From the sequence record OZ035795.1: a stretch of DNA of 64,000 nucleotides; one strand, given 5' to 3'. Of the stretch, positions 29,949 through 54,651 are shown one piece after another. The notes beneath the pieces are model-generated. The model was not told the origin of the DNA. It made no database searches and was given only the letters and a program-made list of their open reading frames with translations. A program made the translations under genes and the position numbers. The stretch is from Krischvirus LF73P4. The stretch's first letter is position 1. Every line of letters starts with the position of its first letter.

Positions 29949-29953
29949 ATTTA

Positions 29954-30166
29954 TTATAATGCACCATCGAGCAATTGCTCTAAGGTGTATCCTGAATAGT
30001 CTTTTTCAATCAGGATATATTTTCCTACTCGTTTAATACAACCGCGCATTTCAACGTATTCTGCGTAGTTGATGGTGCGAGTTGTTCCATCTTCCAGTAA
30101 TGCAGTACCGATTTCGTTAATGCGGTCATAAGTTACGTCGGTAATGATGATTTCGATGTTAGCCAT
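29954..30166 (-). CDS. hypothetical protein
   Basis: 70 aa; PeSL cassette upstream, terminator downstream. Confidence 0.5.
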   Translation of the reverse strand: MANIEIIITDVTYDRINEIGTALLEDGTTRTINYAEYVEMRGCIKRVGKYILIEKDYSGYTLEQLLDGAL

Positions 30167-30240
30167 TTGATACTCCTTAGTAGTTCGTTTCGGTATGGGT
30201 GTATTATGATATACACCCTCTGTTATGTCAACAACTTTTA
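30167..30240 (-). promoter_or_regulatory. PeSL-type early promoter/stem-loop cassette
   Basis: Minus strand TTGACA-17-CATAAT; hairpin GGGTGTAT/ATACACCC over the -10; leader GGAG..ATG. Confidence 0.6.
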
Positions 30241-30417
30241 GAACATTTTTGAAATCAATTCTGCTTTGATTTCGCAGAGAACATCTAAAGATTTCTCGTC
30301 ACCTGCTTTTGCTGCTTCTGCTTGCATTTTTGAAATGGCTTCAATGTCGGTGCAATTATAAGCCGCTTGAACTTTAGCGATTGCGATGATTGCCGATTCG
30401 ATGGTTAAGTGTTTCAT
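30238..30417 (-). CDS. small hypothetical protein
   Basis: 59 aa, manually translated; PeSL cassette and conserved leader upstream. Confidence 0.4.
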   Translation of the reverse strand: MKHLTIESAIIAIAKVQAAYNCTDIEAISKMQAEAAKAGDEKSLDVLCEIKAELISKMF

Positions 30418-30486
30418 GTTTGATTCCCCTTTCGTTTCGGTATGTGTGTATTATAGGGGATCACCGATCCCCCTGTCAACAACTTT
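30418..30486 (-). promoter_or_regulatory. PeSL-type early promoter/stem-loop cassette
   Basis: TTGACA, spacer palindrome GGGGGATCGGTGATCCCC, TATAAT. Confidence 0.6.
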
Positions 30487-31005
30487 TTAGTTATTTTTTA
30501 ATTGCTCATCTTGCAATAGGGCAATCACATGCTGGCGATGTTCTTCCGATTGAGGCACACCGAAAAAGTTTGTTTTGTAGAAATACTCTAATCGGTCTTC
30601 TCGTGTGCTCTCTTCCATCATGATCGCGGGTAGTCCGAGATTTCGGAAACGTCGCTTTTCTGCTGGCGTAAAATCACTGTAATACAACATAGAATCATCA
30701 TTACCAGCAATGCTAAACTCATCCTTCATAAAGGAGAATATTGCGTTTAAACGCTGTTTACCGTCCACGATTTCGATCTCATAGCGAGAGCCATCATCAA
30801 TCTTAGCCATTGCGATAGCACCAACCGGAAAATCATTAATCAGGTTTTCGATAAACATACGTTTGTTTTCGGTGTCCCATACCAAAGGACGCTGATAATC
30901 TGGGTTCATGTTGATATAGCCATCTTCTAACCATGCTTCGTAAACAGAGATGACAAAGTTTTTAGTATTGGTATAGTAACGGCGTTTAGGCGTTAAACGG
31001 TTCAT
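30487..31005 (-). CDS. DUF262 / ParB-like nuclease-domain protein
   Basis: DYQRPLVWD and VDGKQRL motifs; start set at ATG after AGGAG, 1 nt from the upstream stop. Confidence 0.6.
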   Translation of the reverse strand: MNRLTPKRRYYTNTKNFVISVYEAWLEDGYINMNPDYQRPLVWDTENKRMFIENLINDFPVGAIAMAKIDDGSRYEIEIVDGKQRLNAIFSFMKDEFSIAGNDDSMLYYSDFTPAEKRRFRNLGLPAIMMEESTREDRLEYFYKTNFFGVPQSEEHRQHVIALLQDEQLKNN

Positions 31006-31006
31006 G

Positions 31007-31336
31007 TTATAGTCTCCTGAATGGATCATCACGTAAATCAATATCTTTTAAGAACTCATCCCATGAATGGCGGATATTGTTCTTAATTCTCCAGATAAGC
31101 GCAGGGATTGAACGCTCTCCCATCTGGAAGTATGGATCATATGATCCGTATGCCCAATATGCTACTACAATTCCACAATCAGCGCAATAGTATTCTATTT
31201 CACTTGCTGGCGACCAAAGTCCATCAATATGATCGGTGATCTTGCTTTCGATGTTATGGCTATGACAATCAGGGCAACGGATGCAATGACCTTGTTTATC
31301 GTAATTTGACGTTAGCGAATACTTAAACAATCTCAT
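31007..31336 (-). CDS. zinc-ribbon protein
   Basis: CIRCPDC..CADC cysteine pairs; overlaps neighbours in an operon. Confidence 0.5.
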   Translation of the reverse strand: MRLFKYSLTSNYDKQGHCIRCPDCHSHNIESKITDHIDGLWSPASEIEYYCADCGIVVAYWAYGSYDPYFQMGERSIPALIWRIKNNIRHSWDEFLKDIDLRDDPFRRL

Positions 31337-32052
31337 TATAGATCCTTATTGGCTTCAAATACTGCCTTTGCGAATCCTCGCGGGGTAAGTGACCTTATAG
31401 TCTTTGTTTTCGTTCCTTTCCCGCCTAGCTTAGAATGCTGTTTACTGTACCCTTTATTAATCTGCAACGGTTTCTTTTCTGGCATTATAAAGCCTTGTCC
31501 GGTCCATAAGCAAGTCTTTTTTGGGTACATATCACGGTCGGCAATATACTCAGGAAAAGTAGGATGTTTATCATCTTCCGGCAAATAACCGCCATATTCC
31601 CACGGATGGAACATATAATCAGGCTTACGCCACATGCTAGAGATAACGCTTACAGGATTCTCTATCATGTAGGGAACTCCTAGCCATTCACCCAAATAAG
31701 CGGTTATTTTAGCTGCCCGTACATCATGAACTTGAATCAATGGTCCTTGTTCTAGTTTCTTTCGTTCAAAGTGCGCAGCGCCACTAACAGCTAAATTGGT
31801 GCACGGTGGGAATGCAAAGATAATATCCGGTTTCCCCCATTCAAGGTCCATTGCTCTTTCCAGCCAATTCAAATCAATCCATGTGTTTACATAGGTAATG
31901 TTTGGATGTTCAAATCGGGTATTATACTTTTTGTATGTGCCGTGGTCGCCATCGTCAGCATTAAAGCAGATCACCTTATGACCCGCTTTAGCCCATTCTA
32001 ACCCCATTATCCCCGATCCGTCAAAGTTGCAGAATATTAATTTTTGTTTCAT
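31336..32052 (-). CDS. DNA C5-cytosine methyltransferase-like protein (short)
   Basis: Motif I-like FDGSG, catalytic-like DIIFAFPPC (compare DIL.AGFPCQ), ENP at the motif VI spacing; only 238 aa with no obvious target-recognition domain. Confidence 0.5.
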   Translation of the reverse strand: MKQKLIFCNFDGSGIMGLEWAKAGHKVICFNADDGDHGTYKKYNTRFEHPNITYVNTWIDLNWLERAMDLEWGKPDIIFAFPPCTNLAVSGAAHFERKKLEQGPLIQVHDVRAAKITAYLGEWLGVPYMIENPVSVISSMWRKPDYMFHPWEYGGYLPEDDKHPTFPEYIADRDMYPKKTCLWTGQGFIMPEKKPLQINKGYSKQHSKLGGKGTKTKTIRSLTPRGFAKAVFEANKDL

Positions 32053-32294
32053 ATACGCCCCTTTAATCCAACACAGATTTTAGAAGGTTCTTTGCCGTGC
32101 CACATTAAGTAAAGTCCGTTAATGCGGCCTTGTTTTGTGTATGATTCTTTTCTGATCTTCTTATAGTGTCGTGTTTCCTCTACCGATTGTTTAGAATACC
32201 AATCATAAAGGAAGAGGAACAAAGGCCAACCATTAGCAACCTTAATGCAGTTATTCAAAAATTCCTTATTTCGTTTAATTAATTTTCTTTTCAC
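32049..32294 (-). CDS. hypothetical basic protein
   Basis: 81 aa; overlaps neighbouring genes. Confidence 0.45.
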   Translation of the reverse strand: MKRKLIKRNKEFLNNCIKVANGWPLFLFLYDWYSKQSVEETRHYKKIRKESYTKQGRINGLYLMWHGKEPSKICVGLKGRI

Positions 32295-53267: not shown

Positions 53268-53491
53268 TTCGGTCGAGTCTTTTCAAACTTATACATTACG
53301 TAACAATCTCGAATCATCCACGTAACAAGAGCACCAGTCAACACAGACAACACACAGAAGAAGTAAAACGGTCCGGTTGCATTATCAACATGAGCAAGCC
53401 ATGTAAAGAAAACACATGCTAAGAATGTAAAGAACATCATAAAACACAAGAAAGCAAAATATTTTATGCTACTCATAGCGCCACCATACAA
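53252..53491 (-). CDS. small membrane protein
   Basis: Hydrophobic. Confidence 0.4.
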   Translation of the reverse strand: MYGGAMSSIKYFAFLCFMMFFTFLACVFFTWLAHVDNATGPFYFFCVLSVLTGALVTWMIRDCYVMYKFEKTRPKWGKR

Positions 53492-53579
53492 CAGATCATA
53501 AGAAAACCCAACGCAATAAGAATTGCATCAAATTTAGTGAACTCCGGTCCACCTATCAACATCATTCGTTCCTGTTCAT

Positions 53580-53822
53580 TCATAGATCACAGAGCCATCT
53601 GAAAGCACCACATAAAGCGAGCAGAATACTAGGTATAAACGAGACTAAAACAAGTTGGCAAAAATCATCTAAGGTAACACCGGAATAGCTACCTACTGTA
53701 ACAACACCGATCATCAGACACAGAAAGAAAACAAATGCAATCAGAAACAAAGTATTGCTAAACAGTTTAGTGATCATTAGACACCCCACGACGATCAATT
53801 TCAAAAACTTTTTTATCATCAA
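53580..53822 (-). CDS. small membrane protein (start uncertain)
   Basis: Hydrophobic; overlaps the next ORF. Confidence 0.35.
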   Translation of the reverse strand: MMIKKFLKLIVVGCLMITKLFSNTLFLIAFVFFLCLMIGVVTVGSYSGVTLDDFCQLVLVSFIPSILLALCGAFRWLCDL

Positions 53823-53970
53823 CGAAGCATGTCACAACTGCCTCGTTGACTTCCGCAAATTGTTGTGTTACCCACTTAAGGTCAGAGCGAAACAATGTTC
53901 TATTAATAACAAATGTTTTACCGCTCTTATCCTTACCCATAAATTTTGCTTTAACCATATCCAATTCCAT
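53767..53970 (-). CDS. hypothetical protein
   Basis: 67 aa. Confidence 0.4.
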   Translation of the reverse strand: MELDMVKAKFMGKDKSGKTFVINRTLFRSDLKWVTQQFAEVNEAVVTCFVDDKKVFEIDRRGVSNDH

Positions 53971-53979
53971 ATTATCACC

Positions 53980-54138
53980 TTATTTGCTAATCGCTAAACC
54001 CAATCCGAAGAGAGCACCCGATGCTACAGTATACCCGAAAGTTTCAAAGGCAGTAAAGATATCTAAGCCACCAGCTAACAGAGTTGCAGTAAACAGAGTA
54101 CCAGCTACGAACATAAAAGTTTTACCGATAAATTTCAT
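53980..54138 (-). CDS. small membrane protein
   Basis: 52 aa, manually translated; conserved leader and PeSL upstream. Confidence 0.35.
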   Translation of the reverse strand: MKFIGKTFMFVAGTLFTATLLAGGLDIFTAFETFGYTVASGALFGLGLAISK

Positions 54139-54141
54139 CTT

Positions 54142-54204
54142 GATTCTCCTTTCGTTTGTTTGTGGGGGTATCTTACTACCCCCGTTTCATGTTGTCAACT
54201 GTTT
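54142..54204 (-). promoter_or_regulatory. PeSL-type early promoter/stem-loop cassette
   Basis: TTGACA-17-TAAGAT; hairpin GGGGGTAGTAAGATACCCCC. Confidence 0.5.
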
Positions 54205-54582
54205 TTAAGAAAATTTTACTTCGTCTACAATGTCTTTCATGACATTGATTTCCATTCCGGTCAGAACACGTTGGAACATGTGCTGAACATACGCTTTCAG
54301 GTATTCATTTGATGGCTTGCTATCAAAAGTCTTTTTAGTATAGTAGTCATCACCGAAAGCTACTGTAATTACATTTTCGTCGTCGTTCCAAGCGATATAA
54401 GCAAATTTGCCGTTATCCCAGAAGCGAGCACTAATTGCTACTTTTGTTGAATCGAATCCTACTTCGCTGTGAGATTCAAGAACTACTTGCGTGCCAGTTT
54501 CTTTATGAATGTAGTAGCGGGATACTAAGTCAAAGTTACGGGTGTAGTGACATTCGAATTTATCTTTAAACATCATCATCAT
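54205..54582 (-). CDS. hypothetical protein
   Basis: Start at MMMMFKDK after the conserved leader; PeSL upstream. Confidence 0.45.
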   Translation of the reverse strand: MMMMFKDKFECHYTRNFDLVSRYYIHKETGTQVVLESHSEVGFDSTKVAISARFWDNGKFAYIAWNDDENVITVAFGDDYYTKKTFDSKPSNEYLKAYVQHMFQRVLTGMEINVMKDIVDEVKFS

Positions 54583-54651
54583 TTTGATTCTCCTAAGTGT
54601 GTTTCGTTTCGATATGTGCATTATGCTATAGTCGTTTATGGTTGTCAACAC
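54583..54651 (-). promoter_or_regulatory. PeSL-type early promoter cassette
   Basis: TTGACA-17-CATAAT; conserved leader. Confidence 0.55.

Follow-up and report, generated by a model that had tools for sequence, protein, structure and literature searches.

We analysed a stretch of 64,000 nucleotides from Krischvirus LF73P4 (OZ035795.1), called the window in the following, which shares 95-98% identity with 58-63 Krischvirus genomes in GenBank, including those of RB49, Phi1, JSE and GEC-3S. The minus strand of the window contains 20 copies of a short cassette that combines a sigma-70-like promoter, in most copies a G/C-rich hairpin, and a leader with a Shine-Dalgarno sequence (SD) directly upstream of a small gene. 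Here we describe these cassettes and compare them to the PeSLs (promoter-early stem-loops), which were named by Arbiol et al. 2010 for phages RB49 and Phi1 (PMC2839356).

The copies were collected with an nhmmer profile that was built from 19 seed copies and run over the whole 64 kb. This search returned 20 copies, whose E-values range between 2e-8 and 3e-19. They lie without exception on the minus strand, within positions 30165-54673, and outside these copies no profile match better than E=0.017 was found in the window. Strict patterns undercount the family and a profile is required. The pattern TTGACA-N16-18-TATAAT, close to a search proposed in an earlier note on this DNA, gave seven matches in the window (0.09 expected), the invariant block of 11 nt, GGAGAATCAAA, occurs 13 times in its exact form (32545-54593, minus strand only), and a -10 pattern of TAnnnT misses the nine copies that have CATAAT. 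When using a repeat finder, the copies fell into overlapping families of 58-101 nt. The earlier note had counted 21 copies on the minus strand; the strand was correct, but only 20 are family members by profile. Its 21st copy is probably the sigma-70-like promoter with SD found upstream of vs.1 (44834-44899, minus strand; TTGACT-N17-TATTAT...GGAGAAATTAATG), the orthologous site of which is annotated as a promoter in GEC-3S. This site has no family leader and no hairpin, is not matched by the profile and does not belong to the repeat family. Consensus-like sigma-70 promoters are also present outside the hyperplastic blocks, on the minus strand at 13790-13852, 14377-14404 and 27754-27837 and on the plus strand at 15975-16002 and 62484-62511. 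They have no family leader or hairpin and score E 0.017 or worse with the profile.

The -35 box is TTGACA in 19 of the 20 copies and TTGACG in the remaining one, and the spacer between the boxes measures 17 bp in 17 copies, 18 bp in two and 16 bp in one. The A+T content of the 25 nt that precede the -35 box is 56-88%, compared to about 60% regionally, and the A/T tract adjoining the box is typically AAAAAGTTG. Box, spacer and A/T-rich upstream region are thus as described in the earlier note. Its TATAAT-like -10 box was also recovered, with 4-6 of 6 positions as in TATAAT and always an A at position 2 and a T at position 6; however, the commonest form is CATAAT (nine copies) and not TATAAT itself (four copies), the others being TACAAT, TATACT and TAATAT (two copies each) and TAAGAT (one copy). 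The conserved leader, for example ACACCCATCGAAACGA, ends at the start codon in 20 of 20 copies, as had been noted: an SD of GGAG (GGGG in one copy) lies 6-9 nt ahead of an ATG that starts an open reading frame (ORF) of 52-125 amino acids (aa). When the A/T tract is counted, the unit is about 85-100 bp long and not 70-85 bp as reported before. For 18 of the 20 proteins encoded downstream of the cassettes no match was found in Pfam, and a Rfam scan of the whole window gave no match at gathering score.

All cassettes are given here on the minus strand, with the corresponding ORF pairs in brackets. Cassette 1 (30164-30254; Phi1 PeSL ORF186/185; E 2.8e-16) has its -35 box at 30231, a CATAAT -10 box spanned by the hairpin GGGTGTAT/ATACACCC (folding free energy, dG, -12.7) and an ATG at 30166 that opens a 70-aa ORF. 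Cassette 2 (30415-30499; ORF187/186), with TTGACA-N18-TATAAT, the GGGG SD and its ATG at 30417, carries the spacer hairpin GGGGGATCGGTGATCCCC, in which two GATC sites are found. The spacer hairpin of cassette 3 (32540-32634; ORF191/190; TACAAT; ATG 32542) is GGGGAGGATAACTCCCC (dG -15.7, z -3.65), and that of cassette 4 (32791-32879; ORF193/191), the copy with TTGACG, is GGGATCGGGAGATCCC. Cassette 5 (33149-33240; ORF194/193; dG -0.7) is the sole copy that lacks a hairpin and also lacks an upstream terminator. Cassette 6 (33490-33586; ORF197/194) has no internal hairpin, and a rho-independent terminator (33592-33611) is located directly 5′ of it. In cassette 7 (34263-34360; ORF199/198) the GGGTGTAT/ATACACCC hairpin is again found across the -10 box, whereas its orthologues in Phi1, RB49 and GEC-3S have the compensated variant GGGGATAT/ATATCCCC. 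Cassette 8 (35828-35914; ORF205/204) has GGGAGTA/TACTCCC across a TAATAT box (dG -15.2, z -4.8). The next two copies form the left and right ends of a four-gene deletion described below, namely cassette 9 (36061-36138), the orthologue of PeSL206/205, with the spacer hairpin GGGGATCACCGATCCCC, and cassette 10 (37222-37315; ORF210/209), with TTGACA-N18-TATAAT and the hairpin GGGGAGGTTAAACTCCCC. Cassette 11 (37606-37705), which corresponds to PeSL211/210, is also the junction J1 discussed below.

Further along the window, cassette 12 (39698-39775; TTGACA-N16-TATAAT) carries the hairpin CGGGGAGAAATCCCCG. A weaker hairpin, which includes a G.T pair, spans the -10 box of cassette 13 (39981-40077; ORF081/080). 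Cassette 14 (41234-41314; ORF084.1/084) has no internal hairpin and a rho-independent terminator on its 5′ side (41307-41334). In cassette 15 (45683-45765; ORF096/095) the stem GGGGGTA/TACCCCC lies across TAATAT (dG -16.8), and in cassette 16 (51605-51701; 55.3/ORF113) the -10 box is spanned by GGGTGTAT/ATACACCC (dG -17.1, z -4.8). The spacer hairpin of cassette 17 (52327-52411; ORF117/116) is identical to that of cassette 3. Cassette 18 (52579-52681; ORF118/117) and cassette 20 (54580-54673; 57B/ORF125) have no internal hairpin, and rho-independent terminators are located 5′ of both (52688-52709 and 54666-54686, respectively). Between them, cassette 19 (54136-54219; ORF125/124) has GGGGGTA/TACCCCC across a TAAGAT box.

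Hairpins, terminators and a candidate RegB site

The region from the -35 box to +20 was folded for each of the 20 copies. A hairpin was found within the spacer in eight copies and across the -10 box in seven, while five copies have none; the G/C palindromes seen at these two places in the earlier note are therefore indeed present in many copies. The 15 hairpins are stable, with dG values of -11.8 to -17.1 kcal/mol and z-scores of -1.3 to -4.8. Spacer stems are GGGGATC..GATCCCC, GGGGAG..CTCCCC or CGGGGA..TCCCCG, and stems spanning the -10 box are GGGTGTAT..ATACACCC or GGG(G/A)GTA..TAC(C/T)CCC. A canonical terminator lies just upstream of four of the five hairpin-less copies, but of none of the 15 hairpin-bearing ones (Fisher p=0.001). 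A stem-loop of some kind is thus found beside 19 of the 20 promoters, the exception being cassette 5, in agreement with the published "five subclasses". Only the four upstream stem-loops are canonical intrinsic terminators, in which a hairpin is followed by a U-run. The 15 internal hairpins have no U-tract, as the next nucleotides are those of TATAAT/ACAC..., and a terminator scan makes no call for them on the sense strand, so that they are not canonical intrinsic terminators.

To compare the hairpins more broadly, 115 copies from the window, Phi1, RB49, GEC-3S and JK32 were used and the stem pairs were tallied by script. Among these copies the stem sequences vary, while complementarity is retained through double changes. 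Compensatory pairs are GGGTGTAT/ATACACCC versus GGGGATAT/ATATCCCC and GGGGGTA/TACCCCC versus GGGAGTA/TACTCCC, and GGGGATC, GGGGAG and CGGGGA occur as alternative stems. The single non-Watson-Crick pairs in the stems are all G.T on the sense strand (6 of 6) and never A.C, which favours a hairpin that acts in the RNA or on the sense strand. The hairpin could act only on read-through from upstream, as a transcript from the cassette's own promoter would include no more than the 3′ arm.

GATC, the Dam site, was observed 12 times in the 20 spacers (1.7 expected, about 7-fold), though the copies are related and these are not independent events. Spacers with GATC are those at 30479, 32855, 33561, 36126, 37680, 40051, 45745 and 52656, and four hairpins have two sites apiece. 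A Dam methylase is encoded by relatives of Krischvirus LF73P4. Some orthologous loops are inverted with respect to each other. The loops GGGGATCACCGATCCCC and GGGGATCGGTGATCCCC are exact reverse complements, and inversions were seen between 36098-36126 of the window and its RB49 orthologue and between 37652-37680 and its JK32 orthologue. From their sequences, the inverted loops suggest flip events at the palindromes.

The leader block GGAGAATCAAA fits 10 of 11 positions of GGAGRAYARAA, the RegB/S1 consensus, which is derived from RegB of T4. RegB/S1 sites are single-stranded elements of 11 nt, made up of GGAG, with GGA at the 5′ end, and an A-rich tail, that overlap early-gene SDs (Durand et al. 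2006, PMC1702504), and the optimum for T4 RegB is GGAGAAUAAAA (PMC1702504). The minus strand of the window has 16 matches to the consensus at at least 10 of 11 positions. Cassette SDs account for 14 of these, and the SD of regB itself, a GGAT, for another. The other six cassettes match at 9 of 11 positions, and folding predicts the cassette leaders to be unstructured. The regB endoribonuclease gene is located at 44923-45345 (minus strand), with its SD GGATAATAAAA at 45345-45355; in RB49, the regB SD, a GGAU, is reportedly cleaved by RegB itself (autocleavage; PMC3014915). RegB is nowhere mentioned in the PeSL paper (PMC2839356). We propose from the T4-derived consensus that the cassettes may carry a built-in RegB/S1 site for inactivating early mRNAs. 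If true, RegB cleavage of the SD block, possibly together with the Dam sites in the spacers, would be an added layer of control that can be tested.

Correspondence with published PeSLs and gene gain and loss

As defined previously, a PeSL consists of an AT-rich tract and sigma-70 consensus boxes, together with a stable stem-loop, usually G(n)-loop-C(n), for which five positions are known, and an SD with start codon (PMC2839356), and PeSLs are located 5′ of ORFans in hyperplastic regions (PMC2839356). The whole Phi1 genome was aligned with the window, and all 20 copies correspond one-to-one to Phi1 copies at orthologous positions. The profile matched 39 times in Phi1, on the minus strand only and clustered in the hyperplastic regions, and the window copies fall in the ORF185-210 and ORF071-125 blocks of this phage. 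Over 68 nt, several window copies are identical to copies of Phi1, RB49 or GEC-3S, and orthologous sites were independently annotated as promoters in GEC-3S. Cassettes were found in every relative examined, so that their absence from related genomes, named in the earlier note as a ground for refuting it, was not observed, and its assignment to the PeSLs of RB49-group phages is borne out by the orthologous positions and the same architecture. Two of the orthologous elements have been studied by experiment: PeSL206/205 (cassette 9) has a promoter activity of ~13,000 Miller units (PMC2839356), and the stem-loop of PeSL211/210 (cassette 11) showed strong terminator behaviour (PMC2839356). PeSL193/192 is also active as a promoter (PMC2839356). 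In addition, mini-circles resulting from crossovers between the -10 box and the ATG were found by inverse PCR (PMC2839356).

Gene content was compared with Phi1, RB49, GEC-3S, JK32 and ten further contigs that contain the exact ORF210 protein. Seven of the 14 structural differences found have a breakpoint in a cassette. As cassettes head ~20 of 80 genes (~25%), breakpoints are modestly enriched in them (binomial p=0.04); the authors of the PeSL paper reported a PeSL beside 10 of 14 differential ORFans (PMC2839356). The cassette breakpoints include ORF192, an extra gene of RB49 at cassette 4 (32870-32874; the published case), and ORF195/196, which RB49 has in addition at cassette 6 (33514-33610). 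Two metagenome contigs have a clean deletion of four genes, from cassette to cassette (36135 to 37227). Another breakpoint concerns the presence or absence of gp38, a long-tail-fibre adhesin gene, at the cassette 12 locus, where the break lies between the -10 box and the leader (39724-39762). The gene is located here in 46 of 58 relatives and is missing in 12, for example kvi and FL15; in the window it is absent from this locus, and tblastn gave no homologue at any other place in the window. At cassette 14, an insertion of 2.1 kb that starts at 41339 is found in JK32. Two paralogous units of an ORF with its upstream cassette (32625-32866 and 35895-36135, minus strand) are 84-87% identical and, judged by sequence, form a duplicated cassette-plus-gene module. 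The seventh breakpoint is J1.

The differences away from cassettes include the missing ORF090 (43415) and the insertion of an HNH endonuclease gene (46921-47514). The latter is a 197-aa ORF on the minus strand, located between nrdC.11 and vs.6, that is absent from Phi1, RB49 and GEC-3S and is annotated as HNH endonuclease in JK32; it resembles the insertion of a homing endonuclease and seems to have nothing to do with the cassettes. The cores of the cassettes do not clearly change more rapidly than the flanking sequence, as orthologues are 93.8% identical in the core and 96.6% in the leader, compared to about 96% overall.

Taken together, the cassettes are very probably PeSLs that head small early genes in two hyperplastic regions and serve as promoter, attenuator and SD units as well as recombination substrates. 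Several points weigh against this conclusion. The internal hairpins lack a U-tract and are passed over by the terminator scan, and cassette 5 has neither hairpin nor terminator. Half of the structural differences lie away from cassettes, and the enrichment over gene junctions is modest (p about 0.04) with few events. The mini-circle evidence in the literature is based on inverse PCR (PMC2839356), and promoter or terminator activity was measured for two to three orthologues only, in reporter plasmids. With respect to RegB, the consensus was defined for the T4 enzyme, of which RB49 RegB is a divergent homologue, and position 8 of the block is a C where A is preferred.

The same data were considered in the light of other explanations. 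Independent strong early promoters could have converged on the consensus, without a shared cassette or any special role in recombination, and the best-conserved blocks are in fact the functional ones (-35, -10 and SD), orthologous cores evolve at about the rate of their flanks, as given above, and half of the indels are found away from cassettes. However, the likeness extends far past the hexamers into the upstream AAAAAGTTG and the leader ACACCCATCGAAACGA..., with E-values down to 3e-19, variants of leader and hairpin are mosaically combined among copies and orthologues, the breakpoints of seven events lie inside cassettes, and crossovers in cassettes were already reported by inverse PCR (PMC2839356), so that we regard convergence as very improbable. 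The palindromes could also, in place of RNA attenuators, be bound as duplex DNA by a protein dimer that acts as a repressor or in recombination. Eight of them occupy the spacer that separates the -35 box from the -10 box, the classic operator position, they are without U-tracts, Dam methylation at the ~7-fold enriched GATC sites could modulate binding, and a recombination protein was raised as a possibility by Arbiol et al. (PMC2839356). Against this, the stems differ (GGGGATC, GGGGAG, CGGGGA, GGGTGTAT, GGGGGTA) while pairing is kept by compensatory changes, the hairpin shifts among spacer, -10 box and upstream positions, loops vary and are even inverted, wobble pairs occur on the sense strand only (6 to 0), and a canonical terminator replaces the absent palindrome. 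The varied stems, the retained pairing and the substitution by terminators argue for selection on structure and termination and not on a sequence read by a protein, which makes protein sites unlikely.

That the cassettes are many, short, dispersed and tied to gene gain and loss would also be expected of autonomous miniature mobile elements, similar to MITEs (miniature inverted-repeat transposable elements) or integrons, whose movement would depend on a dedicated integrase or transposase, and the authors of the PeSL paper liken PeSLs to integron cassettes (PMC2839356). We give this explanation hardly any weight, as the copies all point the same way and keep a fixed distance from the start codon, neither terminal inverted repeats nor target duplications were seen at the indel borders inspected, crossovers lie within shared homology, and no integrase or recombinase was found beyond the T4-type recombination genes (PMC2839356). 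The cassettes are recombination substrates and not self-mobile elements.

For a cassette acting as a PeSL we propose the following working. Host sigma-70 RNA polymerase would start early transcription at the near-consensus promoter with its A-tract, an UP-like element, as was shown for an orthologue. The G/C hairpin would form only in read-through RNA coming from the upstream gene and would attenuate it, whereas at hairpin-less copies the canonical upstream terminator would take over this role. By attenuating read-through, each cassette with its gene would become a self-contained unit; this step was shown for one orthologue and by analogy may apply to the remaining copies. In the leader, GGAG would serve as a strong ribosome-binding site with a constant spacing to the ATG, and phage RegB would cut the GGAGAAUCAAA block and so switch off the early messages together. 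Since the copies are near-identical repeats of 60-100 bp in one orientation, homologous recombination of the phage could cross over between them and delete, duplicate or swap genes while correct expression is kept. The earlier note had expected such swapping of gene modules from the inclusion of ribosome-binding site and start codon in the cassette, and the seven breakpoints in cassettes support it. The coincidence of cassette borders with gene gain and loss, including that of the host-range adhesin gp38, is an independent check from other genomes.

Junctions J1 and J2

The order of the window differs from that of Phi1, as positions 1-37698 correspond to 85.8-123.67 kb of Phi1, 37609-56851 to 42.58-62.58 kb, and 56743-64000 to 150.03-142.79 kb in reverse. 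The first junction, J1, is cassette 11, whose leader and downstream gene are those of ORF210 (Phi1 123.6 kb), whereas the A/T tract and the upstream gene are those of ORF071 (Phi1 42.6 kb). The two parental PeSLs are near-identical. The second junction, J2 (56740-56860; no strand), is a 108-bp repeat through which gp3 is connected with the end of gp35. In relatives this repeat of ~108 bp forms an inverted pair 5′ of the late genes gp3 and gp36 (Phi1 62478-62585 and 150035-149926). Two small G/C hairpins are found within it (GTGCC..GGCAC and GTCGC..GCGAC), and it has no Rfam match.

Neither junction was found in the 58 GenBank relatives or in IMG/VR, and J1 was also not found in the ten further ORF210 contigs, JGI metagenomes or GTDB genomes. 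A look-up of the exact ORF210 protein gave canonical neighbourhoods only; in the canonical order ORF210 adjoins ORF212, ORF071 adjoins ORF070, gp3 adjoins ORF130 and gp35 adjoins gp36. Two Logan short-read contigs with a protein identical to that of ORF071 (ERR12949693, SRR19581649) end inside cassette 11, one at the palindrome and the other in the leader, indicating that such cassettes fragment de Bruijn assemblies. Among the dispersed repeats of Phi1 the J2 repeat is the second-strongest and the J1 pair the sixth, with exact repeats of about 50 nt or shorter.

In terms of sequence, J1 and J2 fit equally well to an 81-kb circle that was excised and reintegrated, to two nested inversions, or to an alternative path taken by the assembler through the repeats. 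We lean slightly towards J1 being an assembly mis-join at a repeat and not biology, and the chance of a real rearrangement appears somewhat below one half. Besides the absence of J1 from all relatives, contigs and databases searched, and of J2 from the 58 relatives and IMG/VR, the two joins are together precisely the other route through an assembly graph that contains a direct and an inverted pair of repeats, the Logan contigs break in cassette 11, and both repeats rank high among those of Phi1. On the other hand, exact repeats of about 50 nt or less are normally resolved by assemblers working at read length, both joins lie cleanly within homology with every gene keeping its own promoter, and ~50 bp of homology suffices for T4-type recombination (PMC2839356). 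A combined scenario, which we put forward tentatively and hold to be possible rather than probable, is that a block of ~81 kb (Phi1 42.6-123.7 kb) was excised as a PeSL circle, leaving J1 as the scar, and was reintegrated via J2, and that the 11-mer of the leader is a RegB/S1 site. If true, a natural genome reorganisation on a large scale could for the first time be ascribed to a PeSL, and each cassette would combine the signals for initiation, insulation, translation and timed inactivation of the mRNA. As cassettes are break points of short-read assemblies, the rearrangement needs experimental confirmation before it is interpreted.

Relation to known systems

The element class is already known, and the reading of the earlier note is correct in that PeSLs are re-identified here in one more RB49-like genome. 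The cassettes are useful for annotation, as they mark 20 early promoters together with the starts of genes and the borders of units. With the PeSLs of RB49 and Phi1 the cassettes share the genus, the orthologous positions, the architecture and the tie to ORFan indels, and nothing essential is different. At some loci the genome studied here carries hairpin variants of its own, and it is without gp38, ORF192 and ORF195/196. In contrast to all relatives, one PeSL in the present sequence joins two regions that are elsewhere 81 kb apart.

The early promoters of phage T4 are strong, are used by the host sigma-70 polymerase immediately after infection and have an A/T-rich upstream tract. The boxes of the window cassettes are nearer to the E. 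coli consensus and are part of a longer repeat with hairpin and leader. RegB/S1 sites are known from T4-type early mRNAs; the block GGAGAAUCAAA agrees with their consensus at 10 of 11 positions, a difference being the C at position 8.

The PeSL concept was extended by Comeau et al. 2014 to analogous elements of T4/PST and KVP40/nt-1 (PMC4122927). These PeSL and PmSL elements are likewise composite repeats of promoter, stem-loop and SD that are found in hyperplastic regions beside indels (PMC4122927). However, their boxes differ (TTTACW...TAYWAT and TTGYVH...TAWWAT), as do their stems (A3-4G3...C3T3-4 and AGNA...TCNT), which are usually located 5′ of the promoter (PMC4122927). They are analogues of the window cassettes and not sequence relatives. 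Integron cassettes and the 'morons' of lambdoid phages are likewise small accessory genes with their own expression signals that are gained and lost as units. Unlike integrons, the window cassettes have no integrase or attC, and exchange would take place by homologous recombination within the regulatory repeat; 'morons', in turn, are without conserved flanks (PMC2839356).

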